Positions 345 through 56,042 of a stretch of 64,000 nt of DNA are shown one piece after another. The translations under genes and the position numbers were made by a program. Position 1 is the first letter of the stretch. Every line of letters starts with the position of its first letter. A model generated the notes under the pieces. The model was not told the DNA's origin and did no database searches. It saw only the letters and a program-made list of their open reading frames with translations. Source of the DNA: a virus (Duplodnaviria; Heunggongvirae; Uroviricota; Caudoviricetes); the IMG/VR virus record IMGVR_UViG_2778261505_000002. The stretch is one strand, 5' to 3'.

Positions 345-624
345 ATCTCCTCTGTTCAAACTGAGTTTTCGACTCAAAAATTACTTTAAAAGGCTATAGC
401 CCATTACGTGTGCATTATCAAATTGTGTACGGCATATCACCGTACTTGTAATATAGAGGTCATTGTTACTTTTTTCAACAGACAAATACAAGCTATGTTT
501 GCCAATTGTTAATCACAACCTACCATTTAACCTTTACACCGCAGCCGTAGGCATTTAGGCTATATCACATATAAGAAAACAAGTTGTTTCAGACGATAAT
601 TATATACGCAAAGGGAACTCTCCA

Positions 625-1293
625 ATGACCAAGATCTTTGTGGTTGGCGGCACAAAGGGCGGGCCTGGCAAATCCACCGTTGCCCAGCAAATTGCCGTTT
701 GCCTGAAAGTCAAAAAGAAGAAGAAGGTTTATATTACCGATATAGATATTCAGCGCACGACAACGAGCTGGTGTGAAGACCGTCGACAGAACGAAGACCT
801 TGAGCTGATTCCTTTTGCATACGTTCAGGATGACATCATTAAGCACCTAAAATCGCTTCAGGGTAGAGCTGAGTTTGTAGTGGTAGATGCTGGTGGCTTC
901 GACTCCGAAATTCAGCGACAAGCGATGCTGATGGCTGACGTTATCATTATCCCGCTGCGTCCTAAGCGTCGTGATTTGAAATCTTTACGTGACATCGATC
1001 CTATTATCGACAATGTTCGCAATGTAAACGATAAAGTGAAGGTCCGCGCGGTCATGAACCAGTGCCCGGCTTTGCCATCACAAGTGTCTCGCATTCTGGC
1101 GGCTAAAGAGATTGTTGAGACGTTTGGAATCGAGTCTGCGCCAGTCAATCTATATAACCGCAACGTCTATGATGATGCGGAAGAGTCTGGTCGTTCTATC
1201 TTTGAAATGACCGGTAGCGAGCGCGACAAAAAGGCGGAAGCCGAGTTTGAAGAATTTGTAGATTATCTGTTGAGTCTGGAGGAAGAAGAATAA
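625..1293 (+). CDS. parA: ParA/MinD-family partition ATPase (small, type Ib-like)
   Basis: 222 aa; deviant Walker A GGTKGGPGKST near N-terminus; stop overlaps start of a small downstream partner gene. Confidence 0.85.
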   Translation: MTKIFVVGGTKGGPGKSTVAQQIAVCLKVKKKKKVYITDIDIQRTTTSWCEDRRQNEDLELIPFAYVQDDIIKHLKSLQGRAEFVVVDAGGFDSEIQRQAMLMADVIIIPLRPKRRDLKSLRDIDPIIDNVRNVNDKVKVRAVMNQCPALPSQVSRILAAKEIVETFGIESAPVNLYNRNVYDDAEESGRSIFEMTGSERDKKAEAEFEEFVDYLLSLEEEE

Positions 1294-1652
1294 TGTCCAT
1301 GAAAATGGGTGACCTAGCAAAGCGCAAAGAGCCTGATGCACCGGCTAAGAACACAACTCCTTTGCGCCAACCAGTCAGACCACAGGGACGCCCGACTCGT
1401 GGCAAAGAGAAAATTAAAAGCCGCACAATGTCACTGGAGGACGAATACTTCGAACTGCTGGAGATGATGAAGTTCATCCCTCGCTTCGAGAAGTTCACTC
1501 GTTCTGACGTGATTCGAGCAGCCATTTTCCATCTGGCAGAGAAGTCACCGCAGGAAATCGAGGACATCGTGAAATTGAATGAGGCGATCACCGCTGCCGA
1601 TGTCACGATGCGTACCGATGAAATCAAACGAGAGTTGATGAAGAAAGGTTAA
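1293..1652 (+). CDS. Small partition partner protein (ParG/RHH-like centromere-binding protein candidate)
   Basis: 119 aa; start overlaps parA stop (TAATG); basic disordered N-terminus and small C-terminal domain; small-ParA plus small-partner arrangement typical of type Ib par loci. Confidence 0.45.
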   Translation: MSMKMGDLAKRKEPDAPAKNTTPLRQPVRPQGRPTRGKEKIKSRTMSLEDEYFELLEMMKFIPRFEKFTRSDVIRAAIFHLAEKSPQEIEDIVKLNEAITAADVTMRTDEIKRELMKKG

Positions 1653-1657
1653 AAATC

Positions 1658-1688
1658 ATGCATTGGCGCGTACATTGCGCCAATGCAT
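1658..1688. terminator. Bidirectional hairpin between convergent genes
   Basis: Perfect inverted repeat ATGCATTGGCGC-N7-GCGCCAATGCAT between + strand partner gene and - strand GIY-YIG gene. Confidence 0.45.
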
Positions 1689-1704
1689 AACTACAGTGTC
1701 AGCT

Positions 1705-2472
1705 TTATGCCGCGCTAACACTATGTTCAGTCCTAACCACCCCAACCTTCACAAAAGGGCTACCGTAGCTTGGTGGCTTCTTGATTAATTTGCCTACATA
1801 CAGTTTTCTAATATGCTCATCGGCTATTCTGCCAACAAATTCATAACGTTTTGTGTCGGGGCCAAGAGCTATATCCCTTGTAAAGTACTGCTGAGAACCG
1901 GCTTTGACCCAGCATTCAATCTGATAAACTTCCATTATCAGCCCACCATATGTAGCGTAGGCATATTTGAGATTCTCGTCTCTTGGAACCTTTGCCCATA
2001 CGCCACGCGTAGCTTCATATAATGCCAGAGCGGACATTCCTGACTTGTAGGTGCTGTTTAGCAGGAAGGCAAGACCGGCGTGCTCAGGAGCAATTTCAGT
2101 TTCCTCTTGCAGCACTAAGTGATGGTAGGCGTCTAGTGATATTCTGCCCATCATGGAACCACTTCCTCGTACCTTATTCGTAAGCTCTCCGACCCCCATA
2201 AGGTCGATGCATGTCGCCTCAACAAGTTTGGCTGTGGTTTCATCCATACCATGACGAAGTATATCTATGCCTAATTTTTTATTAGCCAAAAGTTCTTTGA
2301 TCCGCATGGATTTGGGAGAGTCATCGGGATACTTGATGTGATCGAGACAACGAGTCGATTTGCCTTTTCCTATGTAAAACGGTCTTTTCATCTTGTCTTC
2401 TGTATCATAGAGACAGTAAACATAGTATTTAGCCTTATCCAATGATCTCGCGTATACCGATAAATCGTCCAT
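1705..2472 (-). CDS. GIY-YIG-motif nuclease-like protein
   Basis: 255 aa; N-terminal YYVYCLYD...RPFYIGKGKSTRCLDH resembles the GIY-YIG catalytic motif (compare UvrC N-terminus); one of very few minus-strand genes in the element. Confidence 0.5.
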   Translation of the reverse strand: MDDLSVYARSLDKAKYYVYCLYDTEDKMKRPFYIGKGKSTRCLDHIKYPDDSPKSMRIKELLANKKLGIDILRHGMDETTAKLVEATCIDLMGVGELTNKVRGSGSMMGRISLDAYHHLVLQEETEIAPEHAGLAFLLNSTYKSGMSALALYEATRGVWAKVPRDENLKYAYATYGGLIMEVYQIECWVKAGSQQYFTRDIALGPDTKRYEFVGRIADEHIRKLYVGKLIKKPPSYGSPFVKVGVVRTEHSVSAA

Positions 2473-2583
2473 TATTGCATCTCTTTGCTACTGACTAATG
2501 CGTTCTATTTTACACATAAGTTTTTAATCAATTTAACAGGCTCAAAGTGTAGAGCTTCTGGGCGTCTAAGACGACAAGTTATG

Positions 2584-2638
2584 CCTGCTTCCGTATATAT
2601 AAATAATAAGTAACTTATTAAATATATACGGAAGCAGG
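2584..2638. repeat. Long hairpin element, copy 1 (17-bp perfect arms CCTGCTTCCGTATATAT, 21-nt loop)
   Basis: Read directly; loop itself is a near-palindrome TAATAAGTAACTTATTA; homologous copy at 48528..48584; followed by T-rich tract. Confidence 0.6.
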
Positions 2639-2754
2639 TCTTTTAAAAGACACCACCAGAACAACTCCCTTCCGTTTCCACTTCCAAAAACTGCCACCAG
2701 TCGCTATCATCCGCTCATTGTGATAAGTAAGTAACTACCTACCAGGTGAGCCAC

Positions 2755-3495
2755 ATGAGCCAAATCTTTTTCGATACCATCGACAACGACCAGTACGACT
2801 TCATGACAGAGTGGAATACCGCTGTTATGGACAAGTGGGTCGCTGAAAACATTGGTTTGTCGCGCTGTAAAGACGAGGCTGAACTCTTCGAGACGAAGTG
2901 GTTTGATTACCGCGACATGCATCCTCTCATGGCCACCTGTCTTTTTACGGAGGCATACAAACGTCAGTACTCAAATATCATGCTGACGCACGGTCGCGAA
3001 CACTTTGAAACAGCTCCGTTCACCACCGGGTTAAAACGTCTGCCTTATCAGGAGTTGTCGACTGCCAATAAAACGTCGCTATGGAAAGCACGCCAGTTTG
3101 CGGATCGCTATTGCTGCTCATACGACTACTTTATCTCCACCGTTCTTTCCGCAGCTGCACGACGGCTGTGGGACAAGCTGCCGCGCCCACAGCATTTATG
3201 GCAGCCAGAACTGATTGAGATATTTGAAGAGAAATTAGCCAGACGCGCAACAACCCGTCTGGATGACTCTCTGGTTAGCTTTAAGCATATGGGAGACATG
3301 CAGTTCAACCCGATTCAGGAAAGCTATTTTGAGTGGATTCTGGAGCGTTTGCGCACCATCCCTCGCAGCAAGCGCATACGCGCAATTTTCTCCGCTATCT
3401 GGCTAATGGAAATCGTTCCAGAGCGCCTTATTTCCGCCCACTTTCCAGAAGAACTGGAAGAAGCACGGCGGTTTATTGATCCCCTATCTAATTAA
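2755..3495 (+). CDS. Hypothetical protein
   Basis: Track ORF 2746..3495 (GTG); ATG at 2755 after AGGTGAG; no recognisable motif. Confidence 0.45.
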   Translation: MSQIFFDTIDNDQYDFMTEWNTAVMDKWVAENIGLSRCKDEAELFETKWFDYRDMHPLMATCLFTEAYKRQYSNIMLTHGREHFETAPFTTGLKRLPYQELSTANKTSLWKARQFADRYCCSYDYFISTVLSAAARRLWDKLPRPQHLWQPELIEIFEEKLARRATTRLDDSLVSFKHMGDMQFNPIQESYFEWILERLRTIPRSKRIRAIFSAIWLMEIVPERLISAHFPEELEEARRFIDPLSN

Positions 3496-3538
3496 CTAAT
3501 ACTAGAAAACAATTTGTTTAAAAAACAAAGGAAAGCAC

Positions 3539-4879
3539 ATGACCGAACTTTGCCATACAGGACGCGGGCTGTCCGAAGAATTTGATGAAGATTTCCAGAA
3601 CAGACTGACGGCATATTTTTGTCGTGATCACGAGTTTCTTACTCGTGCGGGAGATCTGGTTGTGCCTAGCCAGTTTGCCAATGCGGCCAATGCCATATTG
3701 GTTAATATGGTTTCGGGCTATTACCGTATGTACAAGAGCGCGCCCTCTTCATCTGCAATTCTGGATATGCTTAAGCGTGCGAAACGCGATAAGACTATCC
3801 GTGAGGAACTATTCGCCGATGTTGTTGCTGCGTTTAAGCGCATCCTTGCAGAAAAATTGTCCGATACCTCGTACATGGTTGACCAGGTATCAACCTTCGC
3901 AAAAAGTGTAGCGTTTGATGATGCTCTGATTAAGGCTGCTGAACTGAAAGAGAAAGGCGACTTTCAGGGGGCGATGGCAATCATGGCCAAGGTTCAGCAG
4001 ATTGGATCGAACGAAGCGACCGGAATCTATGACTACTACACCTCCGCAAGTGAGCGATTGAAAGCGCGTGAATATGAGGCTTCAGAGGAGTATGTACCAA
4101 ACAGTATTACAACTGGACTCCCTCTTCTCGATAGGTTGCTGTACCAAAAAGGCTGGGCAAAGCGCGAAATGGTGCTCTTCATGGGGTTCGCTAAATCCGG
4201 TAAATCGACCGCAATGGGGGAGTTTTCCATAAACGCAACACTTGCTGGCTACAATGTTCTGTATCTCTCGCTGGAGGTTCACACCACCATTTTATCCGAC
4301 CGTTTTGATGCAAGATTGTCGGAGACGGAAATGTCCAAGTTGGTGGAACGGCGCGATGAAGTTCATCGTAAGTTGGCAGAGTTGGGAGCCTCTAAGGGGA
4401 TTGGTAGTTTGTGGGTTGTTGAGCGTCCGTCAGGAAGTATGTCACCGGCAGATCTGGACCGTATGCTTAACAGTATGAAAGCCAATGGCATGGTGCCTGA
4501 CATGGTTGTTGTCGACTACGCAGATTTGATGCGTGCCAGTTATGACCTTCGTGATGATCGCGCCAACATTCGTAGTATCTACACCGATTTACGTGCTCTT
4601 TATGACAAGCATAACGTTGCTGGGATCACGGCATCGCAGACAAACCGTGAAGGTGGCGCGTCAGAAGTTGCCACAATGATGCACGCTGCCGACAACATCG
4701 AAAAAGTACGTATTGCTGACCTGGTAATAACGATCAACAAAACCGAAGAAGAAGAAGCGAAAGGAGAGGCTCGTCTCTACTTTGCTGGTTCACGTAACCA
4801 GCAGGGAGGGATCAGCATTCGCGTTAAACAAAACCTCGAACAAATGCGCTTCATTGAGCGAATCTTAGACGTTACCTAA
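3539..4879 (+). CDS. DnaB-like replicative DNA helicase
   Basis: 446 aa; RecA-fold core with Walker A GFAKSGKST and Walker B-like VVVDYADLM; conserved upstream AAAGGAAAGCACATG start context. Confidence 0.8.
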   Translation: MTELCHTGRGLSEEFDEDFQNRLTAYFCRDHEFLTRAGDLVVPSQFANAANAILVNMVSGYYRMYKSAPSSSAILDMLKRAKRDKTIREELFADVVAAFKRILAEKLSDTSYMVDQVSTFAKSVAFDDALIKAAELKEKGDFQGAMAIMAKVQQIGSNEATGIYDYYTSASERLKAREYEASEEYVPNSITTGLPLLDRLLYQKGWAKREMVLFMGFAKSGKSTAMGEFSINATLAGYNVLYLSLEVHTTILSDRFDARLSETEMSKLVERRDEVHRKLAELGASKGIGSLWVVERPSGSMSPADLDRMLNSMKANGMVPDMVVVDYADLMRASYDLRDDRANIRSIYTDLRALYDKHNVAGITASQTNREGGASEVATMMHAADNIEKVRIADLVITINKTEEEEAKGEARLYFAGSRNQQGGISIRVKQNLEQMRFIERILDVT

Positions 4880-4960
4880 AAAATAAGCGTGGAGAACACC
4901 TCCACGCTTGATTCATTGGTGAAACAACTTTTCTTTTGCCAAACCACAAAAGAAAAACAC

Positions 4961-7055: not shown

Positions 7056-7538
7056 TTGGCGGTAATTGTGAAAGCTGATTTGTCAAAAATCCCCTCTATT
7101 TCAGGAAATAATGGTTATTCACTTCGTTGTGAGGAAGTAAAGATAAACGGTGAGTCGGCATATTGCAGCTACTCCGTTTGCCAGCACACCATTCTTGCCT
7201 TCAAAGAAAACCGTCTTCCTCGAACTTCATTCCAGTCGTGCGCAACCGCTATCAAAGCAGGCAAATGCAAGGCGTTAAAAATGATGGTTGAAGAGATTCG
7301 TAAAGGAGAATCTCTGTATTTCGAAGATATGACCGCGCTCATTAAGGAGGTTGAAGAACGGAATAAACAAGCCAGAACTTTAAAACGAAAACGTGACAGT
7401 GTAACGATTAATAGCATGGTTAAGAAGAGCGCCACATCACAAACAGCGATCACTGACGTGTATGCGGCGTTGCTTGAAGAAACAACAAAAGAAACACATG
7501 AGCAAATCGATCAACATATGGAGGTAAAACAACAATGA
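7056..7538 (+). CDS. Hypothetical Cys-rich protein (start uncertain)
   Basis: Track ORF starts at TTG; several Cys residues; true start may be an internal GTG/ATG. Confidence 0.35.
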   Translation: MAVIVKADLSKIPSISGNNGYSLRCEEVKINGESAYCSYSVCQHTILAFKENRLPRTSFQSCATAIKAGKCKALKMMVEEIRKGESLYFEDMTALIKEVEERNKQARTLKRKRDSVTINSMVKKSATSQTAITDVYAALLEETTKETHEQIDQHMEVKQQ

Positions 7539-8857: not shown

Positions 8858-9033
8858 TGCTCGGCTGGATGATTGCATTTTTAGCAGTTGGTTTTTTCAT
8901 AGGTATTGTGGTGATGTCCAGTTGCATCAATGACTACATTAAAAGCGGTGTTATAGAAAGACGCGGTCGTATTTATCGCATTGTAGAAATAACCAACACC
9001 CTGAAGGAGATTAAGGATGATCGTATTAAGTAA
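8854..9033 (+). CDS. Small membrane protein (59 aa, not in ORF track)
   Basis: ATG overlaps ligase stop (ATGA); MMLGWMIAFLAVGFFIGIVVM hydrophobic helix. Confidence 0.35.
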   Translation: MMLGWMIAFLAVGFFIGIVVMSSCINDYIKSGVIERRGRIYRIVEITNTLKEIKDDRIK

Positions 9034-9232
9034 ACGGGAGAAGGAAACGCTTCATGAAATCAGTAAGTGGCCGGAGTTCCCTGAGTACTGGAAGCCTAAA
9101 ACGCGAGCTAAGTTAGAGCGTTTAGGGTTGGTTGCAAACGTTTCTGAAACGTGGTGTTCGGCCAACTACCAGTTAACTGATAAAGGGAAAGTATTGCTAC
9201 AGCAATTAGTAGAATCAGGAGCGTTAAAATGA
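9017..9232 (+). CDS. Hypothetical protein
   Basis: 71-aa ORF with AAGGAG RBS 7 nt upstream. Confidence 0.4.
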   Translation: MIVLSKREKETLHEISKWPEFPEYWKPKTRAKLERLGLVANVSETWCSANYQLTDKGKVLLQQLVESGALK

Positions 9233-25287: not shown

Positions 25288-25349
25288 TCTCTTGAAAATA
25301 TATAAGTACTTACTTATTATTTTCGCATAACAACCACATAGGAAAACAC

Positions 25350-26430: not shown

Positions 26431-26479
26431 CGTTATTATCACACACAAGAAAACAATTTGTTAAAAGGTTAAGTTAATT

Positions 26480-28489: not shown

Positions 28490-28624
28490 ATGACTTTACA
28501 TTGTTTTTTCAAAGGGCATTGCTTTTCACTATACAGAAACAGAAATAATAATGGGGCATTCTACATATGTAGTAAATGTGGGAGGACAAAATATCTTCCA
28601 GATGTCAAATTTGAAGGTCCTTGA
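28490..28624 (+). CDS. Small zinc-ribbon-like protein (44 aa, not in ORF track)
   Basis: HCFFKGHC...YICSKCG Cys pattern; ATG follows previous stop by 2 nt. Confidence 0.3.
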   Translation: MTLHCFFKGHCFSLYRNRNNNGAFYICSKCGRTKYLPDVKFEGP

Positions 28625-30872: not shown

Positions 30873-30918
30873 ATGCAAACTGACTGCGGAACGTGCCGCA
30901 GTCATATTTCATAGTCGT

Positions 30919-31452
30919 CACCGCTGACAGCATACACAATCAACTACCGCTGATAGCATATCGAGAGTCTATCTCACCGCTCACAGCATACATTACTCGA
31001 TTTTTTACCGCTGACAGCATACTTAAGAAATTGCATGAATAATGTGTCCCGGTATGGGTATAACCAGAACAAAATTACCGCTGGCAGCATACGAATGTCT
31101 GACATATACCATTAATTACCGCTGATAGCATATCCAAACAAAAATTCCTCAATAAAACACCGCTGACAGCATACATTCTATCAGAGAGTAGCAGGCAATA
31201 AATGCCTTTCACTACAAGCAATCAGCGCAATAGCAATAGAATGTTAGTGAGCGCAAACCTATATGGAATGCACTCTTCGAGGTTAGTAACCACTGGGGAG
31301 GTATGACAGAGCATTGAGTGGTGATAGATGATTTACCGCTCACAGCATACGTTCATCTCACTATACCGCTGGTAGCATATCTTTAACCGTTCACAGCATA
31401 CTTTTCAGAAAAATAGCCGCTGATAGCATACATTTCACCGCTGACAGCATAT
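30919..31452. repeat. Iteron array (about 12 copies of ~17-bp repeat ACCGCTGACAGCATAC) downstream of repA
   Basis: Copies counted by eye with minor variants (CTGATAGCATAT, CTCACAGCATAC, CTGGCAGCATAC); irregular spacing with a ~150-bp gap between copies 7 and 8. Confidence 0.8.
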
Positions 31453-32546
31453 CAAAGCAGTTTGAGACTATTGGAAAGGATCTCAATCATCTTGATATTT
31501 TCAGGCGTCAAATTCTGCGAAAGTTCGGTTATCTTGTTGATAATGTTCTGTTTGGCATCAATTTCCCCAGCTTTCTCATCTGGTTTTTTGGGTTCGATGT
31601 CTTCAGGTTTTGGCGGTGCGACTTTGAGTTTTGGATTGCGGCTGTGAATCTGGATATAGATCGACCGCCCACGCTTAATCTCGCTGTATTCGAGATAGCC
31701 CAAATCTTGGAGAGCTTTTAAGCCGTTACGTATAGTCTGATTCTGCGAGCTGACATTCCTGCTACTCAAATTGAGTCGCGCACGCAATCGAGCAAGCGAT
31801 ACCGGCGCAGGCTTGGTTGGAAGACTTTCGATGAAGGTGTACAGAGCCTGTGCTGTTTCTTTGCGTGGTAGCTTATTGATAACCTTTAACTGCAAAAGAA
31901 CCTTATGGTCAAAGCGATATAGTTCGGCCAGCTTCGGTTCTGCATAGAACACCACCGTATCTTTCTGCTCGTTGTAGTCCACGCTATTGATGAGGTGCAC
32001 CATCAGAAGCGAGATCTTGTTAGAGCCGTCGACGTTCTTTTCTTCATACGTTCTCTGGAAAGACAGAGTTGTACGCATGATCTTCAAAAGACTGTTTGTA
32101 AGCCGGTCGCGGAGTGTTTTGCGGATCTGTGACGATGGATAGCCACAAAACTTAGCAAATTTCGTGATACTTAACTCGACACGACCGTTAGGTTCGCCGT
32201 ATTCTGCCAGCGAACGCACAACGCCCACCCACGTTTTGAAATCATGATCCATGTCGAGACGAGGACCGGTTATCTTGATATCGGAATAGCCTTCAGAACG
32301 GGCTACTTCGAGCTGGACAAGCTCCTTTGAAGCATCGATCTCATTTGGCTTGTTACGTTTACTGTATTTTGTTCCCTTAAGCGTGGGGACGAACAACCCC
32401 AGTCGCATCAACGCAATTGGTTGGACTGTATTGTTGCTATTAGGGACAAGTTCCCCTGTGTACAATTCAAGGGAACCTTCTTCAAAGTTGTCGATGTTAT
32501 CTTCTACTTCTTTGTTATTTTTACCTTTTTTATTTTTTGTGGACAT
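31452..32546 (-). CDS. repA: Iteron-binding replication initiator RepA
   Basis: 364 aa from Met at 32546 (track ORF extends into the upstream iterons); NSNNTVQPIALMRLGLFVP and IKITGPRLDMDHDFKTW segments match what I recall of P1/RepFIB-type RepA; flanked by iteron arrays. Confidence 0.8.
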   Translation of the reverse strand: MSTKNKKGKNNKEVEDNIDNFEEGSLELYTGELVPNSNNTVQPIALMRLGLFVPTLKGTKYSKRNKPNEIDASKELVQLEVARSEGYSDIKITGPRLDMDHDFKTWVGVVRSLAEYGEPNGRVELSITKFAKFCGYPSSQIRKTLRDRLTNSLLKIMRTTLSFQRTYEEKNVDGSNKISLLMVHLINSVDYNEQKDTVVFYAEPKLAELYRFDHKVLLQLKVINKLPRKETAQALYTFIESLPTKPAPVSLARLRARLNLSSRNVSSQNQTIRNGLKALQDLGYLEYSEIKRGRSIYIQIHSRNPKLKVAPPKPEDIEPKKPDEKAGEIDAKQNIINKITELSQNLTPENIKMIEILSNSLKLL

Positions 32547-32708: not shown

Positions 32709-32781
32709 GATCGGGGATCTTATTTGATCTATATAAGGATCTATCTATGGATCTCTTTATTAGGATCTATCCTGTGGATAT
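32709..32781. other. Candidate replication origin: GATC cluster plus DnaA-box-like site
   Basis: Six GATC sites within 59 bp (32709-32767) and TGTGGATAT at 32773-32781 (8/9 to DnaA box), adjacent to origin-side iterons. Confidence 0.5.
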
Positions 32782-38383: not shown

Positions 38384-40699
38384 ATGATAAGCATCGTAAA
38401 ACGTAACGGCCAAACAGAGCCGTTATCCGAAGAAAAATACAACCGCGTCGTAATGTATGGCGTAGAAGGCATTCGTGGTGTAAGCGCATCCGCTGTAGCA
38501 ATGGGAGCTGCGGCCAGCATTTTTGATGGGATGACCACCAGCCAGTTGCATGAGGCTTTGGTTAAATCTGCCGCTGATTTGATCTCACCAGAAGCACCAA
38601 ATTACTCACAGGTGGCTGCCCGCCTGAACATTTTTAAAATCCGCAAAGATGCCTTCGGTCGTTACGACTATCCGAACTTCTACCAACACATTGTCAAGAA
38701 CGTTAACAAGGGCGTTTATGACAAGGATTTGCTGACACATTATTCGTTTGAAGAGATCGAAGAACTCGGCAATTACATTAAGCCTAAACGTGACGATCTT
38801 TTTGGCTATGCAGCTACGGTGCAGTTGCAAAGCAAATACCTCGTTCAAAACCGTGTTACTGGTGAGATTCATGAGGGGCCGCAACATATCTATATGCTGG
38901 TAGGCATGTGTCTGTTCCAGAATTGGGAAGACGACTGCGCTGGCAAAACACGTATGGAGATGGTCAAAGGTTTCTATGACGTTACAAGTACGTTCAAACT
39001 GTCTCTGCCCACACCAATCATGGCCGGCGTCCGTACTCCAACCCGTCAGTTCTCCAGTTGTGTGCTGATTGAGTCTGGCGATAGTCTGAAAGGGATTAGT
39101 GCAGCTTCAGCCGCAATTATCGACTACGTTTCACGTCGTGCTGGAATTGGTATTGGTTTTGGCCGTATCCGTGCGCTGGGCAGCGAGATCCGCAATGGTG
39201 AAGCCACCCATACCGGAGTTATTCCATTCCTGAAGCATTTCCAGACAGCTGTTAAATCTTGTTCGCAAGGTGGTGTTCGTGGTGGCGCAGCAACAGCGTT
39301 TTACCCGATCTGGCATCTTGAAGTTGAAAGTCTGCTGGTGGTGAAAAATAACCGTGGTATTGATGAAAACCGCGTTCGCCATCTTGATTACGGCGTCATG
39401 AGTAACCGTCTAATGTACCGTCGACTCGTCAGAAGCGAGAACATCACTCTGTTCAGCCCGCATGATGTGCCTGATATGTACGAAGCCTTCTTCACAGACC
39501 AGGAGCTGTTTGAAAAGCTGTACCATAAATACGAAGCCGATGATTCAATTCGCAAGAAGTCAGTACCTGCCATTGAGCTGTTCTCATCTCTGATGCAGGA
39601 ACGAGCGTCCACGGGCCGAATTTATATTGCGAACGTCGATCATATTAATGAGCATGGCGCTTTCATTCCTGCTCTTGCACCTGTCCGCCAGTCAAACCTG
39701 TGTATGGAGATCACCCTACCCACCCGTCCACTGGCATTTACCGACGACCCGAACGGTGAGATCGCGCTATGCACTTTATCCGCTTTTAACCTCGGAGCCA
39801 TCCGTTCACTGGAGTCTCTTAAAGAGGTGGCGTTCTATGCCGTTGCTGCACTGGATTCGTTACTGGATTATCAAGACTATCCGATGGAGGCAGCCGAAGT
39901 GCCTGCCAAAGCTCGTCGTAGCTTGGGAATTGGTGTAACCAACTTTGCTTATTACCTGGCAAAGAATGGCGTTCGTTATTCTGATACCGCTGGTAATAAA
40001 CTGGTGCATGAAACATTCGAAGCTATCCAGTATTACCTTCTTGATGCCAGCTGCCGACTTGCTGAAGCAAAAGGTGAGTGTGACTGGTTTGAGCAGACCA
40101 AGTACGCAATTGGTCAGTTGCCGATCGACCATTACCGTTCTTCATTAGACGAAAGTGGCGAAACCAACTTTGAGTTAAAGATGCCGTGGGAAGAACTGCG
40201 TGAACGTATTGCAAAATACGGCCTTCGCAACTCCACACTGACGGCACAAATGCCATGCGAGACTTCCAGCCAGATCACTAATTCCACCAACGGCATCGAA
40301 CCGCCTCGTGGCCCGGTGTCGGTGAAATCTTCTAAGGACGGCATCGTTAAGATGGTCGTGCCTGAGTTTGAAAAACTGAAGGAACAGTATGAATACCTGT
40401 GGGATATGCCGGACAACCGCGGCTATCTGACAAAGGTGGCGATCATCCAGAAGTTCTTTGACCAGGCTATTTCAGCCAATACCAACTATGACCCTTCTCG
40501 CTTTGAAGGCGATAAAGTCCCAATGATGACGCTACTGTCAGATTTGCTTCTCGCCTACAAGATGGGAGTTAAAACGCTTTACTACCACAACACCAGAGAT
40601 GGTGCAGGAAAGCGTGATGACGACGAACCGCAGAATCCACTGGCGCAAGCTGTAGCCGTCGAGCCAGAAGATGAGTGCGACGGAGCCTGCAAAATCTGA
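38384..40699 (+). CDS. nrdA: Ribonucleoside-diphosphate reductase alpha subunit (class Ia)
   Basis: 771 aa; collinear and highly similar to enterobacterial NrdA as I recall it (VQNRVTGEI, TRQFSSCVLIE, SNLCMEI, C-terminal CxxC tail). Confidence 0.9.
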   Translation: MISIVKRNGQTEPLSEEKYNRVVMYGVEGIRGVSASAVAMGAAASIFDGMTTSQLHEALVKSAADLISPEAPNYSQVAARLNIFKIRKDAFGRYDYPNFYQHIVKNVNKGVYDKDLLTHYSFEEIEELGNYIKPKRDDLFGYAATVQLQSKYLVQNRVTGEIHEGPQHIYMLVGMCLFQNWEDDCAGKTRMEMVKGFYDVTSTFKLSLPTPIMAGVRTPTRQFSSCVLIESGDSLKGISAASAAIIDYVSRRAGIGIGFGRIRALGSEIRNGEATHTGVIPFLKHFQTAVKSCSQGGVRGGAATAFYPIWHLEVESLLVVKNNRGIDENRVRHLDYGVMSNRLMYRRLVRSENITLFSPHDVPDMYEAFFTDQELFEKLYHKYEADDSIRKKSVPAIELFSSLMQERASTGRIYIANVDHINEHGAFIPALAPVRQSNLCMEITLPTRPLAFTDDPNGEIALCTLSAFNLGAIRSLESLKEVAFYAVAALDSLLDYQDYPMEAAEVPAKARRSLGIGVTNFAYYLAKNGVRYSDTAGNKLVHETFEAIQYYLLDASCRLAEAKGECDWFEQTKYAIGQLPIDHYRSSLDESGETNFELKMPWEELRERIAKYGLRNSTLTAQMPCETSSQITNSTNGIEPPRGPVSVKSSKDGIVKMVVPEFEKLKEQYEYLWDMPDNRGYLTKVAIIQKFFDQAISANTNYDPSRFEGDKVPMMTLLSDLLLAYKMGVKTLYYHNTRDGAGKRDDDEPQNPLAQAVAVEPEDECDGACKI

Positions 40700-40704
40700 C
40701 ATAT

Positions 40705-40733
40705 GGTGGGGGATATCCCCACCTTCTCTTTGA
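40705..40733 (+). terminator. Rho-independent terminator
   Basis: GGTGGGGGAT-ATCCCCACC hairpin followed by T-rich tract. Confidence 0.55.
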
Positions 40734-40805
40734 TTTGTAAGCCTTGTTTAAACACATAAGATAACAACTTGTTTAAACGCACCAAAAAAGAAAAAGGAAA
40801 AACAC

Positions 40806-41948
40806 ATGTCATATTCAACGTTCCGTTTGGGTGCTAATGATGCAACCAAAGAGCCTATGTTCCTCGGACAATCTGTCAACGTGGCACGTTACGATCAGCA
40901 AAAATACCGTGATTTTGAAAAGTTGATTGAACGTCAATTGTCTTTCTTCTGGCGGCCGGAAGAAGTTGATATTTCGAGCGATCGTATCGACTTCAACACG
41001 AAGCTGCGGGACCACGAACGTCACATTTTTCTGAGCAATCTCCGTTATCAAACGTTACTCGATTCAGTTCAGGGACGTAGTCCAAATGCAACGCTGCTGC
41101 CGCTTATCTCTATTCCTGAACTGGAAACGTGGGTTGAAACGTGGTCTTTCTCTGAGACTATCCATAGCCGCAGCTACACCCACATTATTCGTGGCATGGT
41201 GGACGATCCGAGCATTGTTTTTGACGGTATTGTTACGGATGAAGAAATCATCAACCGAGCGATCAGTATCTCTGCTGAATATGACAGGCTTTATGGGATG
41301 ACCTGCGAGCGCCAGTCGTTAGGTGAGAAGGAATTTGAGCGTCTGTACGTAAATGAATATGGCTGGGAGCCATACCCTTTGCATCGTCAGCTTTTCCGCA
41401 CGTTGGTGTCCATTAATGCGCTTGAGGCGATCCGTTTCTACGTAAGTTTTGCATGTACGTTTGCCTTTGGTGAACGGAAGTTGCTTGAGGGTAACACCAA
41501 AATTATGCGCTTTATTGCCCGTGATGAAGCTCTGCATTGCGAAGGAACTGAACGCATGATCCGCTTCATGCGTACCGGTCGCGAAGGTTTATTGTGGAAA
41601 GAGATTGCTGCTGATGAAGAAAACGTCATTTACGACACCATGAAATCAGTCGCCGAACAAGAAATGAACTGGGCAGACTATCTCTTCAAAGACGGTTCGA
41701 TGATTGGTTTAAACGCGGATATTCTCAAAACCTATGTAAAATACCGCACCAATCTGGCTATGAATCGTCTTGGCCTGAAGGCTTTATTTCCAGAAGTTAC
41801 CACTGATCCGCTGGTCTGGATGAACAAGTGGTTGTTAACCGACACACTGCAAATTGCGCCACAAGAGGCAGAGCAAAGCACATATCTGGTAGGTCAGATC
41901 GATTCTACCGTGGATAAGGCTTCTCTAAGCCAGTTTGCAGACCTGTAA
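40806..41948 (+). CDS. nrdB: Ribonucleoside-diphosphate reductase beta subunit (class Ia)
   Basis: 380 aa; collinear with enterobacterial NrdB ([41 protein letters not shown]). Confidence 0.9.
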
Positions 41949-42025: not shown

Positions 42026-42895
42026 ATGAACTTTACCAAACTGACTGACCACCTGAAACTTGCCACCGATCGACTCATTGGATTTAAGCCAGAACCATAT
42101 GAGTTGCATGAAGGCCATGGTGTAGCCACTGAAAGTATTTACAAGATGGTCGATCAGTTTCATGAACTCTTCCAGCATCCGAGACGCGTTATGCCGACAC
42201 CAGAGCTGCTTCGTCTCCGTGCAAGCCTGATTCATGAAGAAGCTGTAGTGGAAGGTATTCCAGCCGCAATGAATGGGGATATTGAGCAACTGCTGGATGC
42301 AATGGCCGACTTTTTATACGTTGGTGTTGGTACGATGGTCGCCATCAAAGGTGGTATTTCTACCGGCATGACTTATTACACGCAGGAACAGAGCATTGAT
42401 CGCTTTATGCAGACAATTTTTGTGCCTGGTAACACTGTTTTCGATGATATGGCAATGCCATTTCAGGAAGCTCGTGAGGCGTCATGTATGCTCGAAGAGC
42501 TGGCAGATAAACTTGAGAAGAAGACTGTTAAGGATTCTGAGCTGATTCAGGAACTGCGCCGTGTAATGAACAAAATCTATGTGGCGTGCATGATGACTTA
42601 TCGACTGGCTGATTTTCTCGGTATCAATGTCGTCGAGCTGGTTGGCGAAATTCATCGGTCCAACATGACAAAATTATGGCCTGCAGATGCCGAAGAGCGT
42701 CGCCATGCTGTGGCCAACTGCAAATACGACTCTTCTGACCTGGGATTTCGCCATGCTGATGGCACCGATAAGATGATCGGTTTTCGAATTTCCGATGGAA
42801 AGATTCTGAAGTCTCCAACCTATAGTGATGTCGATTTATCCTCCTTTGTTGAGCAAGCTAAAGCCTCAGCAATGTACGGAATGATCAAAAAATAA
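42026..42895 (+). CDS. Hypothetical protein; possible MazG/HisE-like nucleotide pyrophosphohydrolase
   Basis: 289 aa; acidic helix pairs IHEEAVVEG ... DIEQLLDAMADF loosely fit the MazG-type ExxE...ExxD pattern. Confidence 0.35.
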   Translation: MNFTKLTDHLKLATDRLIGFKPEPYELHEGHGVATESIYKMVDQFHELFQHPRRVMPTPELLRLRASLIHEEAVVEGIPAAMNGDIEQLLDAMADFLYVGVGTMVAIKGGISTGMTYYTQEQSIDRFMQTIFVPGNTVFDDMAMPFQEAREASCMLEELADKLEKKTVKDSELIQELRRVMNKIYVACMMTYRLADFLGINVVELVGEIHRSNMTKLWPADAEERRHAVANCKYDSSDLGFRHADGTDKMIGFRISDGKILKSPTYSDVDLSSFVEQAKASAMYGMIKK

Positions 42896-46750: not shown

Positions 46751-46754
46751 AACA

Positions 46755-50926: not shown

Positions 50927-51019
50927 CGGCTGTTAGTGCATATGCATTGACCATCTCTGCGTAAGCTATTTATGTAATTAGAAAACAACTTGTTTTGACA
51001 AATAATAAAAGGAAAGCAC

Positions 51020-51603: not shown

Positions 51604-51604
51604 T

Positions 51605-51637: not shown

Positions 51638-51742
51638 CCGAAATAGAGAGTTTGCACCTTTACGTTTAGCTTGCTCCCCTTTTATGCCACATCACAATAA
51701 AGCCAATAAGAAAACAACTTGTTTAAGTATTAGGAAAAACAC

Positions 51743-52309
51743 ATGTGCAAGAAATGCAGAGCGATAGCTGATGAACAAAACGCCTTATTCGAAGAAATGG
51801 ATGCTAATGAACTGGTCAAAATGTTAGCCATTCTTCGAGGAATAGAAGACGTTTCCATATTTGAGAGACTGTTTACAATACTTAATTTTAATTCCACCTT
51901 TGAAGAGCCAACTCAGATTGTAGCTTTGGCACACCATTTCGGTGTTCATTACCTTGCTGAAAAAGAGAGAGCTGATAAGTTGCAAGCGACTTTGGATATG
52001 GTGAGCGAGACTCCAGGACCTCATGACGGTAACAAAAGTGAGACGATTATTGCCAGCAAAGATCGTGAAATTGCCGGGCTTAAATCCTCTCTAACGATGT
52101 TGATGTCTGCAATTAACCTTATGTCTTCTAAAGCAGGTTCTAAAATGCCATCACTAAACAGCGACGATCCGATGGCCGTTCGCCAGCTTTTAGGTGCAAT
52201 GGCCGACCAGCTCGACGACACAAAGAGTCGCCTTGAAGACATGATGCGGGAGCTCACGCATCGCCATGACTTGAATAAGCAGCCGCACAAAACGCAATAC
52301 GCACTCTAA
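51743..52309 (+). CDS. Hypothetical coiled-coil protein
   Basis: 188-aa ORF with GGAAAAACACATG start context. Confidence 0.5.
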   Translation: MCKKCRAIADEQNALFEEMDANELVKMLAILRGIEDVSIFERLFTILNFNSTFEEPTQIVALAHHFGVHYLAEKERADKLQATLDMVSETPGPHDGNKSETIIASKDREIAGLKSSLTMLMSAINLMSSKAGSKMPSLNSDDPMAVRQLLGAMADQLDDTKSRLEDMMRELTHRHDLNKQPHKTQYAL

Positions 52310-52326
52310 TACAGCACCAGTCGACA

Positions 52327-52348
52327 GGGGGCGACAGCCCCCATTTTT
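52327..52348 (+). terminator. Rho-independent terminator
   Basis: GGGGGC-GACA-GCCCCC followed by ATTTTT. Confidence 0.65.
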
Positions 52349-52450
52349 ACGCCTTAAATCTGCTGTAACGCCTATGAATGCAGCTTTTATGCCTTTTCAA
52401 GTTTGCGATAATTACACCAATCAGAAAACAAATTATTTAATGGTGTAATT

Positions 52451-54136
52451 ATGAATACAGCCCTTTCCATCATCGACGATGCCAGCTCAAACACGGCTAT
52501 CGACTATCGTCAGGAAATGAATGTCATCCACGAAATCGTGGCCGAGTGCGAGAAAGAGATCGCCTTCATGTATCAGGTTCACGACTTCGTTTATGGAGAC
52601 GAACGCCACAACATGATTAATCGCCTGCTGAGACTAAACCATCGACCAGATGAAGATCGCTCGCGTTTAAATCGAGGTTGGTTGGATAAAGTCGATCTGG
52701 AATGGGTGAAACAGAATATTTGGGCCGAGTACTGGAGGAAGGTCACGGACATGACTAACGTTTTGCTGATCATGCCAGCTTCCCGTCGAGATGAGTGGCG
52801 CGAGCAGTTTATAGAGGGCAAACAGGAAGTCATCAAAACTGACAGAACCGGCTACCAGATGAAGGTTAAAGAGTTCGTTGGTGTACCGGAGTTCAAAGCA
52901 GAAACGGTCATACCCACGATGCTTAATTTGCTGAATGACAGGCACAAATATCTCTCTGAGCGCGTGTATGGCTTGTTTAAGGCGCTGAGTCCTGCGCACA
53001 AGACAAATAAGACAAACGGTTTCAGCGAGCGTCTGATAATCGCTGACTGCATTTCTGATTTCTGGCGGGACAGCGTTAGCGTGAACTATCGCAAAGAGGA
53101 CTACATCGACGATCTGCGTGTCTTGCTTCATTTCTTCGCGCACAAAGAATTTATTACCATCAACCGCACTGCTGAGGTGCTATCAGCTGCGTATCGAGCA
53201 AACGACTGCCAGACCGGTGACTGGATGAACGTCGATGGAAATCTGATGCGCGTGAAGATGTTCAAGAACGGCAACGTTCACTTTGAAATACATCCTGACG
53301 TGGCCTGGAAGTTGAATGAGGTGCTGGCTTACAGTATGCCTGCTGCAATCCCCGCGCCATGCCGAACTGCGCCAAAAACACGGGCACCAAAGCAGTTCGG
53401 GTTAATCCAGAAGACGATCTCCGTGCCGGTTCGCACTGCGCTTCGTGACGGGCGATTGAGCAAAGACAAAGGCGTATGGTACTTCTCTGATTCAGCTCTC
53501 CAGAAGTCGCAGGTGGAAGAGCTTGAGCGCACACTGAGCTTCATTGGCGGCGTGCAGGAGAAAAAGCACTGGCAGTTCCCGTATGACATCGGCCATACGC
53601 TAAATACGATTGTGGCTACCGGTTTAATACCGGATACAAAATCACACCAGTTCTACCCTACCCCACGCTTGATTGCTGAGTACGTTGCCAGAGCCACTGA
53701 ATTGAAGCCTGGTGAGAAGCTGCTGGAGCCTCAAGCCGGACGTGGGGATCTTCTGGCCTATATTAACGCCGATCTGGAAGATGTTACCTGCATAGAAATC
53801 GCACCTCTCTTCGCTGATATCCTGCGTGGAAAAGGGTATACGAACACGATTTGCTGCGACTTCATAAAGTGGTCTGAGGACAACGCAGGTTATCAGTTCG
53901 ACAAAATCGTTATGAACCCGCCGTACTCGCTTGGTCGTCATAGAGAGCACACGCTGGCTGCGCTGGGGCATCTGAAAGTCGGCGGGCGTCTTGTAGCAGT
54001 ATTGCCGGGCACTGCGCCAATACTGGACTGGATGACGATGGATAATTACGTTTATGCCAGAGGGAAGTCGTTTACCAACGAGTTTGAAGACACAGGGATC
54101 ACAGTCAGCGTATACGTTTTCAAACGCGTTAAATGA
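52451..54136 (+). CDS. Putative N6-adenine DNA methyltransferase with large N-terminal domain of unknown function
   Basis: 561 aa; C-terminal ~180 aa carry FYPTPR, SAM-binding-like LEPQAGRGDLL and catalytic NPPYS (gamma-class order); N-terminal ~380 aa unassigned. Confidence 0.6.
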   Translation: MNTALSIIDDASSNTAIDYRQEMNVIHEIVAECEKEIAFMYQVHDFVYGDERHNMINRLLRLNHRPDEDRSRLNRGWLDKVDLEWVKQNIWAEYWRKVTDMTNVLLIMPASRRDEWREQFIEGKQEVIKTDRTGYQMKVKEFVGVPEFKAETVIPTMLNLLNDRHKYLSERVYGLFKALSPAHKTNKTNGFSERLIIADCISDFWRDSVSVNYRKEDYIDDLRVLLHFFAHKEFITINRTAEVLSAAYRANDCQTGDWMNVDGNLMRVKMFKNGNVHFEIHPDVAWKLNEVLAYSMPAAIPAPCRTAPKTRAPKQFGLIQKTISVPVRTALRDGRLSKDKGVWYFSDSALQKSQVEELERTLSFIGGVQEKKHWQFPYDIGHTLNTIVATGLIPDTKSHQFYPTPRLIAEYVARATELKPGEKLLEPQAGRGDLLAYINADLEDVTCIEIAPLFADILRGKGYTNTICCDFIKWSEDNAGYQFDKIVMNPPYSLGRHREHTLAALGHLKVGGRLVAVLPGTAPILDWMTMDNYVYARGKSFTNEFEDTGITVSVYVFKRVK

Positions 54137-54196
54137 TAGGTAAATACTTACTTAGTTTATGTAAGAATGTAGTAACTAAACGATAAGAGAAAACAC

Positions 54197-54901
54197 ATGA
54201 GCAACCTCCAGTTAGAGCATTTTAACGTCACAGGCCATTCCGATTTTCCTTTCAAGTTTACATTGAAAGGTTATGCAGAGGATGCGGTAGGCCAGATCAT
54301 TATTGATAAAGGCATCGTTAAGTTTGAGGGGAATTTTGATGAATCCGCGAAAACATTCATAGACTTCGTTGCCAAACGTTGGAGCGAGCAATGGAAAGAC
54401 CTGGAAAAGCGCGCTAGTGAGTTTGATCGGTTCATGGATGCAATGGATACAGCAAAAGAGGCTCTTGCTGCCGGTACTCCGTTAGATCTGGAGTCACTTT
54501 TCAACGGCGAAGTGGCCTCTGCGATGTTCGCCACCATGTTCGCGGGTGAGTTCGTCCGCAGCGGTGCCAAAAACTACCTTGAGCTGGATTACAACGTCCC
54601 TGCAATTGGCGACTTCGTCGTTACCATCCAACGCAAAGAAGGTAAGACGCCAGGTGAACGCGTCGCAGAGCTTGAGGCCGTTGTGGATCAGCGTAACGGA
54701 GAGTGTGACCGTTTGATCAACGAGCTTCATGCACTTCGGGAAGAAAGAATATGTGCGGGTAGCAATACACGTAATGCAGCGGATATCTACTTCCAGTTAG
54801 TTGAGGAATGCCAGATTCCACCAGGTGGCTCTCTTGTCGATTACGTCAGACATTTAATGGCGGAAGTTAACTCCAGCCATAAAGATGGTGAGGTGCGCTG
54901 A
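54197..54901 (+). CDS. Hypothetical protein
   Basis: 234-aa ORF with GAGAAAACACATG start context. Confidence 0.45.
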   Translation: MSNLQLEHFNVTGHSDFPFKFTLKGYAEDAVGQIIIDKGIVKFEGNFDESAKTFIDFVAKRWSEQWKDLEKRASEFDRFMDAMDTAKEALAAGTPLDLESLFNGEVASAMFATMFAGEFVRSGAKNYLELDYNVPAIGDFVVTIQRKEGKTPGERVAELEAVVDQRNGECDRLINELHALREERICAGSNTRNAADIYFQLVEECQIPPGGSLVDYVRHLMAEVNSSHKDGEVR

Positions 54902-55281
54902 TGTTTGGCATTGACGCACAGCGTATAGCCGCTTTTGCAAAAAGCCCTCTTGATAATCCCTTGTCTCGTAGTGAGCAAATGGAGCTGGCAAGGCTTTTTC
55001 TTCACATTCAAAAACAGGCAGACATTTTCAATAACATGCCTAATCAACCTATTCTGGATGGTCACATCCAGATGGTCATTAACAGTCATGAGAAAGGCTG
55101 GGCTGCAATCGTCCCCTGCACAATTACATACAAGTTGGCGAAAGAGGTTCAAGAGTTTCGAAAAGCCAGTGTCGAATCGGAGTCTACCAAAGCCGCAATA
55201 AACACTCTTATTCGCATGGGGTTCACATGGACCGGTGGAGCCTACTGGCAAGCACCTCACCCCATTTTATCCGGCAATTAG
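54901..55281 (+). CDS. Hypothetical protein
   Basis: 126-aa ORF, start overlaps previous stop. Confidence 0.4.
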   Translation: MFGIDAQRIAAFAKSPLDNPLSRSEQMELARLFLHIQKQADIFNNMPNQPILDGHIQMVINSHEKGWAAIVPCTITYKLAKEVQEFRKASVESESTKAAINTLIRMGFTWTGGAYWQAPHPILSGN

Positions 55282-55400
55282 ACGCTACAAATCCTTCGGC
55301 ATGAATAAATAAAGGCCATAAGTTGTGGCCTTAAATAAATTGTTTTCTACCTTTTCTTATTTGTGAAAATAACCACAACTAGAAAACAACGGAGTTAAGA

Positions 55401-56042
55401 ATGTCTAGTATTTCCGAAGCTCATATGTTCGCCGCTGGCGCTCATGGTGGCGTTGGTCAGAAAAGAAAATATACCGGCGAAGACTACATCAACCACCCGG
55501 TTGCTGTCCGAGAGATTGTTGCATTGCATGACGGAACCGTGGAGATGCAAATCGCGGCGCTTCTGCATGATGTGGTCGAAGACACCCATGTAACCATAGA
55601 GATGGTTCGTGATCACTTCGGTGAGCGCGTAGCTGAAATGGTTCAGGCTCTGACCAACATTGCAAGGCCAGAAGACGGCAATCGAATACAGCGTTTCATC
55701 ATCAATGTCCGGGAGCTGGAGCAAAATCTCGACATGCAGACGCGCATGATCAAGCTGGCTGACCTGCTCGACAATACCTCTTCTATCGTGAGTCGCGATC
55801 CCGAGTTTTCAGCTATCTACCTTGCAGAGAAAGAGCTGATGCTGGACGTACTTTTTAACGGGAAGGAGATTGGTGCCAACGCTGATGTTGTCGAGTACAT
55901 GGAGAGGATAGGTATAGAACACCCGTTGCTATTAAGCGCAATGGCGAAAGTCACTGAAGGTATTGCGCTTCTGAAACCGGAACACATCAAACGTTATGAA
56001 AAACACAAATCGCTGATCTGGAGCGCGTGGGAGGCTGCATGA
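55401..56042 (+). CDS. HD-domain (p)ppGpp hydrolase-like protein (small alarmone hydrolase candidate)
   Basis: 213 aa; HPVAVREIV...AALLHDVVEDT matches the RelA/SpoT hydrolase HD motif; no synthetase domain. Confidence 0.65.
   Translation: MSSISEAHMFAAGAHGGVGQKRKYTGEDYINHPVAVREIVALHDGTVEMQIAALLHDVVEDTHVTIEMVRDHFGERVAEMVQALTNIARPEDGNRIQRFIINVRELEQNLDMQTRMIKLADLLDNTSSIVSRDPEFSAIYLAEKELMLDVLFNGKEIGANADVVEYMERIGIEHPLLLSAMAKVTEGIALLKPEHIKRYEKHKSLIWSAWEAA

Follow-up and report, generated by a model that had tools for sequence, protein, structure and literature searches.

A conserved dyad dispersed over SSU5-type phage-plasmids as a candidate operator of a regulon-wide repressor

Which signal could tie together the scattered genes of an SSU5-type phage-plasmid, and what reads it? 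The question is raised by a 64,000-nucleotide stretch of Caudoviricetes DNA (IMG/VR record IMGVR_UViG_2778261505_000002; 'the window' below means this whole stretch), in which one short dyad, here called M2, recurs shortly before the start codons of dispersed genes. By megablast, the window belongs to the SSU5 group of phage-plasmids, with E. coli as the host context: Escherichia phage CMS-2020a covers 96% of the first 20 kb at 98.8% identity, phage Cyrano (the pLF82 of E. coli LF82) is 97.5% identical and Salmonella phage SSU5 about 80%. Nearly all window genes lie on the + strand, and gene names are taken from the well-annotated Cyrano record (CYRAN_ numbers). Phage-plasmids of the SSU5/pHCM2/pKpn type are frequent in clinical E. 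coli, Salmonella, Klebsiella and Yersinia, and resistance genes are often aboard (PMC9600943, PMC7969092). Their regulation has essentially hardly been studied; full-text literature searches returned no description of promoters, operators or repressors of this group, likewise none of the M2 motif, and no experimentally mapped transcript starts. A 16-bp site at about 20 promoters is a direct handle on the circuit, both for defining the regulon and as a probe for finding its regulator, and it hints at how partition, replication and early lytic genes switch together. We put the probability that M2 is the DNA operator of a regulon-wide repressor at roughly 55%.

M2 is the 16-base dyad AGAAAACAAnTTGTTT, and eight full copies stand upstream of + strand window genes where about one is expected by chance. 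A search for GAAAACAANTTGTTT with up to two mismatches yields 14 matches in the window (palindromic sites counted on both strands), while 100 dinucleotide shuffles yield 1.03 on average and never more than 5. A position weight matrix (PWM) built from the eight full sites finds nine window sites at 18 bits or more, against 0.12 expected, a figure to be read with its training on the window sites themselves in mind; the same matrix finds about 20 sites each in the independent genomes of SSU5 and of the Klebsiella oxytoca plasmid pCAV1015-111 (pCAV below). All strong window sites are intergenic and co-directional with the next gene. M2 is in this respect what dispersed operators are, many copies of one site at promoters round the replicon, far above chance. 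The original prediction had listed ten genes with such a dyad 20-45 bp before the ATG. The spacing agrees with our measurement of 19-42 nt from dyad centre to ATG, and eight of the ten genes do have a full + strand dyad; the HD hydrolase gene (ATG 55401), however, has a reversed copy and a half-site, and the primase gene (ATG 4961) only a degenerate look-alike. The latter, GAAACAACTTTTCTTT at 4920..4935 on the + strand, scores under the 10-bit threshold of the PWM and has no orthologous site in SSU5 (15 bits) or pCAV (14 bits), and it was not kept as a member.

Alignment of 57 distinct sites from six genomes reveals that the conserved unit is longer than the dyad and asymmetric, A..AGAAAACAA-N-TTGTTT, with about 30 bits in the 16-bp core. 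The six bases on each side of the centre form a perfect mirror, in which C9 and G15 face each other, and of the flanks only the left one (A..AGA) is conserved. Position 6 is A in 53 sites and T in the remaining four.

The motif keeps its position in homologous elements, as the original prediction demands. Scanned with the PWM, the complete Cyrano, SSU5 and pCAV sequences carry 17-20 M2 sites each, mostly upstream of orthologous genes, and these sites persist amid diverging flanks down to the 68% helicase identity of pCAV; relatives with 70-80% helicase identity have M2 at the parA and helicase promoters. For seven of the eight full window sites SSU5 has an orthologous site, the exception being terB, where it has another gene. 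In Yersinia pestis pMT1, M2 sites are kept wherever the regions survive. When the parA upstream regions of five diverged genomes are aligned, the dyad is the sole invariant block, so that M2 sits at the promoter of the parA operon, where a type Ib partition operator is expected. Among 78 loci around helicase relatives in viral contigs, M2 is all or none by clade, present at helicase identities of at least 68% and absent at 47% or less, and none of these loci holds a lineage with a variant M2 that could covary with the DNA-reading residues of a candidate binder. The whole sequence of an Acinetobacter relative has no dispersed M2 copies; the par operator of the Acinetobacter relatives is a different palindrome, TCTATATAGA, present twice at parA and three times in one cluster, and offers no parallel for a dispersed site. 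A set of 120 viral contigs carrying the exact 17-mer comprises 102 SSU5-like ones and 18 others with one or two copies each, as by chance, and unrelated phages sharing M2 together with one regulator were thus not found.

Since there is no room for a promoter between dyad and ATG, as had been noticed before, and since many sites directly follow a terminator hairpin, transcription must begin just upstream; predicted -35/-10 elements do lie directly upstream of the dyad. Promoters were called by scoring -35/spacer/-10 combinations for each ortholog group, and all start positions given here are predictions of this kind. By these sigma-70 promoters, the dyad lies over either the transcription start or the ~20 bases transcribed first. 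From the end of a -10-like hexamer (GATAAT, TATTAT and others, often with a TGn extension) to the G of AGAAAAC the commonest distance is 12 nt, seen in 14 of 53 sites, and 26 of the 53 fall within 10-14 nt. The predicted dyad centre is constant within each ortholog group despite differing hexamers, with an overall range from -1 to +16: nrdB is at -1, the helicase at +4 to +6, terB at +7/+8, and parA, cobT, gene 26480, gene 51743 and the methyltransferase at +12 to +16, while the small early genes are mostly at +14/+15 with a few divergent calls. At nrdB, the predicted -10 hexamer TAAGAT, 16-17 bp after TTGnnn, exists because of a conserved A-to-T variant, AGATAAC. A second arrangement occurs in three genomes, in which a reversed full copy centred near -38 is paired with a forward copy or half-site around +13; the two are spaced 49 bp apart each time (window 55329/55378, SSU5 88315/88364, Cyrano 93110/93159). 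The AGA-bearing half of M2 almost always points toward the -10. The gap between the -10 and M2 runs from an overlap (-2) to 14 nt, and M2 does not therefore behave as a core promoter element at a fixed distance. A dyad at or just after the start, as predicted here, is in the classical position of a repressor operator. The individual sites are listed in the table.

Table. Coordinates of M2 sites, M2-associated genes and other repeated features (window positions unless another genome is named; promoters and dyad centres are predicted)
Feature	Position	Strand	Gene or context	Predicted promoter; dyad centre	Orthologous sites
M2 AGAAAACAAGTTGTTT	574..589	+	parA (ATG 625)	TTTACA(533-538)-17-TAGGCT(556-561); ~+16	
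M2 AGAAAACAATTTGTTT	3504..3519	+	DnaB-like helicase (ATG 3539)	TTGATC(3476-3481)-16-AATACT(3498-3503); ~+4	SSU5, L009, L010, pCAV: +4 to +6
M2, weaker copy AGTAAATAATTTGTTT	14034..14049	+	cobT-like (ATG 14069)	-10 TACATT (14019-14024) with TG extension; ~+13	near-consensus in SSU5, pMT1; palindrome M1 instead in pCAV
M2 AGAAAACAATTTGTTA	26448..26463	+	gene 26480; directly 3' of terminator hairpin	-10 TATTAT (26434-26439); ~+12	Cyrano 58589, SSU5 56842, pCAV 38047, pMT1 50063
M2 variant AGATAACAACTTGTTT	40759..40774	+	nrdB (ATG 40806)	-10 TAAGAT (40757-40762), 16 nt past TTGTAA; ~-1	SSU5 70213, pCAV 39436 (same geometry, TTGnnn-16/17-TAAGAT)
M2	50980..50995	+	terB/TciA-like (ATG 51020)	TTGACC(50947-50952)-17-TTATGT; ~+8	
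M2	51709..51724	+	gene 51743	~+14	SSU5 81739, pCAV 63395
M2 AGAAAACAAATTATTT	52423..52438	+	DUF4942/methyltransferase (ATG 52451)	extended -10 TGcGATAAT (GATAAT 52407-52412); ~+14	SSU5 82462, pCAV 66945
M2, reversed full copy (GGTAGAAAACAATTTATTT on - strand)	55333..55348	-	3' of terminator hairpin	~-38 from HD hydrolase promoter	SSU5 85598, Cyrano 85814
M2 forward half-site AGAAAACAA	55381..55389	+	HD hydrolase (ATG 55401)	3' of -10 GAAAAT (55365-55370)	
terS leader: two M2 copies 25 bp apart, then GC-rich hairpin and T run (terminator-like)	Cyrano 51-98, SSU5 50-97, pMT1 28494-28541 (outside window)		directly before terS start		
C29, 119 amino acids, candidate binder	1293..1652	+	directly 3' of parA		only where M2 occurs
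C37, 71 amino acids, candidate binder	9017..9232	+	downstream in helicase-ligase gene string		only where M2 occurs
Strict start context (pattern count)	starts 3528, 21322, 21870, 29822, 33755, 40794, 51009	+			
Start context, example AAGGAAAGCACATG	3528..3541	+	helicase start		
M1 14-mer	starts 9680, 16196, 21779, 25303, 29802, 33636, 38320, 43037, 47872, 50090, 54137				

If M2 is an operator, a single sequence-specific DNA-binding protein of the phage-plasmid would recognise it in dimeric or tetrameric form. It would do so at about 20 sigma-70 promoters, with the site on the start point or shortly past it; many of these would be extended -10 promoters directly after a terminator. The bound protein would block open-complex formation or promoter escape. 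In this way the protein would control in concert the partition operon, the helicase-primase-ligase string, cobT, nrdB, the methyltransferase and the HD hydrolase, as well as the leader of terS and a group of small early units of one gene each. M2 promoters probably also drive the genes for two small proteins considered below as binders, C37 and C29, and the circuit would then regulate itself.

That the outcome is repression we infer with the help of an RNA-seq table of a Cyrano lysogen from a study of the LF82 prophages (PMC9928086 S1 Table), in which the Cyrano median is 9.8. Genes preceded by M2 are at or near this background (cobT 7.8, CYRAN_58 5.7, nrdB 12.9, CYRAN_85 7.0, CYRAN_87 7.1 and CYRAN_101 7.5). 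The helicase has 21; with 50, 89 and 55, the parA operon is plainly expressed (PMC9928086). Many M2 promoters with an extended -10 should fire unaided, and their silence thus fits repression; the level of the parA operon fits an autoregulated operon.

Is M2 read as DNA or as RNA? The original prediction had allowed for a translational control element as well as an operator, and here the operator fares better. Folded as RNA, the dyad has 0 to -1.8 kcal/mol and the predicted 5' untranslated regions form no stable structure, the leaders doing no better than shuffles (z-scores -0.45 to +1.3). Across the 57 sites, which were chosen by a sequence PWM, there are 21 departures from pairing, all of them one-sided and none compensatory, and an Rfam scan of the window returned only three tRNAs and no family match for M2. 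Folding energy, lack of covariation and lack of an Rfam match together led us to reject an RNA hairpin or riboregulator. The mirrored C9 and G15 in a perfect 6+6 palindrome fit a dimeric DNA binder, and because of this exact symmetry, the reversed upstream copies and the predicted starts inside the dyad in the nrdB and helicase classes, we infer that M2 is recognised as double-stranded DNA.

A protein could still read M2 in the 5' leaders of messages as a single-stranded site, repressing translation and destabilising the message as FljA does with fliC mRNA. The obvious candidate is the FljA-family protein CYRAN_114/SSU5_121, whose Cyrano member matches the Pfam family Flag1_repress (PF03614) at 1e-80; inspection picks out two Sm/Hfq-fold-like stretches in CYRAN_114, one of them with a weak Hfq-family Pfam match. 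Alternatively, host Hfq could bind the A-rich (AACAA) and U-rich halves. Such RNA-level reading draws on several likenesses to Salmonella flagellar phase variation, where the target of FljA also lies in a 5' leader shortly upstream of the Shine-Dalgarno sequence. The Salmonella fliC leader, recovered from metagenome contigs, has the 8-mer CAAGTTGT in common with some M2 copies, its centre lying 23 nt ahead of the AUG where M2 centres lie at 19-42 nt; M2 often abuts the Shine-Dalgarno sequence, all forward sites are asymmetric and sense-oriented, and every M2-bearing element examined has an FljA-like gene (homologues in SSU5, pCAV and pMT1), as the Acinetobacter relatives do not. The rest of the fliC leader does not match, however, the E. 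coli fliC leader lacks the 8-mer, and FljA has one known target against some twenty M2 sites. The predicted promoters place the site wholly inside the leader for the +12 to +16 class; they do not for nrdB (-1) and the helicase (+4 to +6), where the start falls inside or beside the dyad and the left half is left untranscribed, nor for the reversed copies, which are in untranscribed or antisense positions. Exact mirror symmetry of C9 and G15 has no reason in a single-stranded RNA site; as RNA, M2 has negligible hairpin potential and no covariation. Finally, the FljA-like protein is only 78% identical between the window element and Cyrano, elements that are otherwise 97-99% identical, and 39% identical in pCAV, while M2 is unchanged; with this divergence, reading at RNA level is kept only as an unlikely rival. 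As a DNA-level binder the FljA-like protein is without support and was dropped. Its gene, annotated as a repressor of phase-1 flagellin, lies outside the window at Cyrano 100780-101301 (L003 20780-21301, - strand). Its unusual variability between near-identical elements suggests an accessory gene aimed at the host, which could turn off the flagellin of the host.

The constancy of M2 might instead point to an Enterobacterales host regulator that binds the site and ties the early promoters to host physiology. M2 is unchanged across elements of E. coli, Salmonella, Klebsiella, Kluyvera and Yersinia whose proteins drop to 40-70% identity, and it is absent from all relatives at 47% helicase identity or less, the Acinetobacter ones included. 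Its half-sites AAACA/TGTTT moreover closely resemble the dyad upstream of E. coli kdgK, GGAACAcTGTTTT, which we take to be the KdgR box, with inverted pentamers GAACA/TGTTT. The spacing is wrong, however, with one base between the pentamers at kdgK and three in M2, and the flanks differ, so that KdgR was rejected. No E. coli regulator is known to have the consensus AAACAA-N-TTGTTT, and the near-confinement of the exact 17-mer to SSU5-like contigs described above also speaks against a host factor, which we regard as quite unlikely.

M2 might also be a promoter-proximal loading or pause site, marking transcripts or promoters for a phage factor, an antiterminator or activator, that lets RNA polymerase pass the terminators following nearly every gene, the copy at -38 serving as an activator site. 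Many M2 units stand between terminator hairpins; in relatives, the terS leader has two M2 copies and then a terminator-like hairpin ahead of terS; a -35 is missing from many M2 promoters; and the orientation toward the -10 is fixed. The distance to the -10, by contrast, varies from overlap to 14 nt, too widely for a pause or loading site of fixed geometry; as position 6 attests, the left flank does not look like a -10; the extended -10 TGn would make many promoters independent of an activator; and no stable nut-like hairpin is present. On balance, this explanation appears very unlikely. The terS leader by itself suggests that the late operon is also under M2 control, perhaps needing antitermination.

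Which protein would bind the operator? In full-genome and locus comparisons, C29, C37, the FljA-like protein and homologues of CYRAN_113 and CYRAN_62 are found together with M2, and relatives without the motif lack them. Tentatively, the binder may be C37, a MarR-like winged-helix protein: its model, of moderate confidence (predicted local distance difference test, pLDDT, 78.5), is a winged helix like the DNA-binding domain of MarR-family repressors, with TM-scores of about 0.7, and its putative recognition helix KTRAKLE is nearly invariant. C29, which is ParG/omega-like by inspection, is a possible if doubtful binder. Its N-terminus MGDLAKR is invariant, as is the strand-helix-helix pattern IKSRTMS..EDE / FTRSDVIRAAI (predicted helices 48-60 and 70-84), in a family otherwise only 49% identical; it has no Pfam or PDB sequence match. 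At 89 against the background of 9.8 in the Cyrano lysogen, and behind an M2 promoter, it is expressed as expected of an autoregulating partition adaptor of the ParG/omega type. Other element or host proteins, taken together, call for the same doubt as C29, and the remainder falls to reading at RNA level.

Two further proteins were judged unlikely binders. The Xre-type repressor beside the integrase (CYRAN_45; 13123-13506, - strand) has GGTAAGTGCTTACC rather than M2 in its own upstream region, its family reaches distant relatives without M2, and SSU5 lacks it yet has M2. CYRAN_117 (92 amino acids, strand-helix-helix by inspection, high in the lysogen) has a putative DNA-reading strand that differs between Cyrano, SSU5 and pCAV, while M2 does not. 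The integrase and Xre-type repressor form a module (window 12022-13506, upstream of cobT) that is also present in Cyrano, pCAV, pMT1 and even an Acinetobacter relative; SSU5 is without it (SSU5 42596-42760 compared) and may be a repressor-less derivative, which would agree with its use as a lytic biocontrol phage.

It is important to point out what weighs against a repressor operator. The promoter positions are all predicted, with weak hexamers (TAGGCT, CACAAT) among them. M2 is asymmetric, with its AGA half almost always toward the -10, an orientation that a purely steric repressor does not need; the bias could reflect RNA-level reading, contact with RNA polymerase or promoter cassettes that are inherited whole. 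For a phage operator it would be unusual to remain constant between elements whose helicases are only 68% identical, and a host factor would fit equally well. Low RNA in the lysogen would also be expected if the promoters need an absent activator. As for the binders, C37 is at background in the lysogen (6.4), and the ribbon-helix-helix of C29 is read from its sequence pattern, the AF2 model having a pLDDT of 63, at which a fold search is meaningless, and no fold match. Lastly, pMT1 has lost C29 and C37 and keeps intact M2 sites, although it is possibly too recent a derivative to inform; the regions it keeps are nearly identical to SSU5, and its loss of parA-C29 and C37 was for this reason not used to exclude either candidate.

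Several known systems resemble the proposed operator in function, and its sequence matches none of the phage and plasmid systems compared. One such system is the C1 repressor of P1, an enterobacterial phage-plasmid in which many copies of one short site are likewise dispersed in the genome and overlap replication and early promoters, including those of DnaB-type helicase and methyltransferase-type genes, to form one regulon and not one immunity region. The dispersed C1 operators are, however, a 17-bp asymmetric sequence, ATTGCTCTAATAAATTT, without resemblance to the largely palindromic M2, and no C1 homologue is annotated in these elements. KorB (with KorA) of RK2/IncP and omega of pSM19035 also act at a palindromic or repeated site at the partition promoter and at further promoters, so that a centromere-binding protein doubles as a global repressor; here M2 is at the parA promoter, and the small conserved protein C29 is encoded after parA. 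KorB differs in its ParB-type helix-turn-helix and its different 13-bp site, and omega and ParG bind arrays of several short repeats. No such array, as a centromere of the ParG/omega type would have, was found near the par genes; M2 consists of single dyads or pairs, and C29 is a candidate only. It is a rather doubtful idea that C29 binds M2 and that the partition adaptor doubles as a global silencer, with the ~20 scattered M2 sites as dispersed centromeres; if true, plasmid maintenance and the lysogenic state would be one circuit.

In the small-gene region (Cyrano 93-99 kb, SSU5 88-95 kb), the same cassette stands before each short variable gene, in the order terminator hairpin, extended -10 promoter, M2 and Shine-Dalgarno sequence. 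This recalls the PeSL cassettes of T4-type phages, in which an early promoter and a stem-loop flank variable ORFs. The PeSL cassettes are defined by promoter and stem-loop, have no operator-like dyad after the start and are unrelated in sequence. The repeated M2 cassettes could double as homology patches for gene shuffling.

A shared start context had also been claimed, with many more genes having a near-identical AAGGAAA(A/G)CACATG initiation region. The context is real and above chance: the + strand has 7 copies of (A/G)(A/G)GGA-N3-6-CACATG, where 0.33 are expected and 3 is the maximum, CACATG itself is present 28 times on the + and 9 times on the - strand of the window, and the context recurs throughout SSU5 and pCAV. 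The 'many more', however, shrink to about 7 strict and 12-15 relaxed cases. The context looks like a family-wide ribosome-binding consensus and no separate control element.

A second and more abundant dispersed palindrome, M1, (a/g)aTAAGTAnnTACTTA(c/t)cTAT, occurs in the window and throughout Cyrano, SSU5 and pCAV, structural genes included. In a de novo count of dyads, Cyrano has 8 exact copies of TAAGT-N4-ACTTA (0.08 expected) and pCAV has 10 (0.06 expected). M1 is found in intergenic regions without M2, and adjacent genes alternate, with M2 at cobT and M1 at cobS, and M1 at nrdA and M2 at nrdB; a predicted promoter, TTGAAA-17-TATTAT, has its spacer filled by the M1 copy at 25303. In distant relatives the palindrome takes a form particular to the lineage, TAGTAAGCGCTTACTATAAT in Acinetobacter (26 sites at up to one mismatch) and AGTCA-N4-TGACT in others, and these versions track the wider distribution of the integrase-linked Xre-type repressor. 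M1 is possibly the operator of the lysogeny repressor, and M1 and M2 together indicate a two-signal architecture.

Further noncoding features were noted. Outside the window, a noncoding stretch of 0.5-1.1 kb, A+C-rich on the + strand (Cyrano 94271-95230, SSU5 90382-91140, pCAV 70902-72060), starts at an M2-type promoter followed by the conserved ATCAACG(A/T)AACGTCAA and holds GCCATTACCCAA repeats and several AAACAAC half-sites; possible identities are a lytic origin, a centromere and a long noncoding RNA. In the window, a perfect inverted repeat with 17-nt arms (CCTGCTTCCGTATATAT / ATATATACGGAAGCAGG) at 2584-2638 surrounds a second, AT-rich palindrome in the gap between the par genes and the + strand gene that follows. 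Iteron-like tandem repeats of 26 nt lie at 30918-30992 and 32726-32779, on either side of repA (31452-32546, - strand). The three tRNA genes found by Rfam form a cluster at 10447-10690, a stretch with ~90% identity to the tRNA region of phages P7 and D6 and to a Myoviridae phage of E. coli O157, a likeness not shared by the rest of the window. By coordinate mapping rather than alignment (11811-12022 against Cyrano 40268-40822), CYRAN_43 is seemingly absent from the window; it is by far the top Cyrano gene in lysogen RNA, at 7084 against the background of 9.8.

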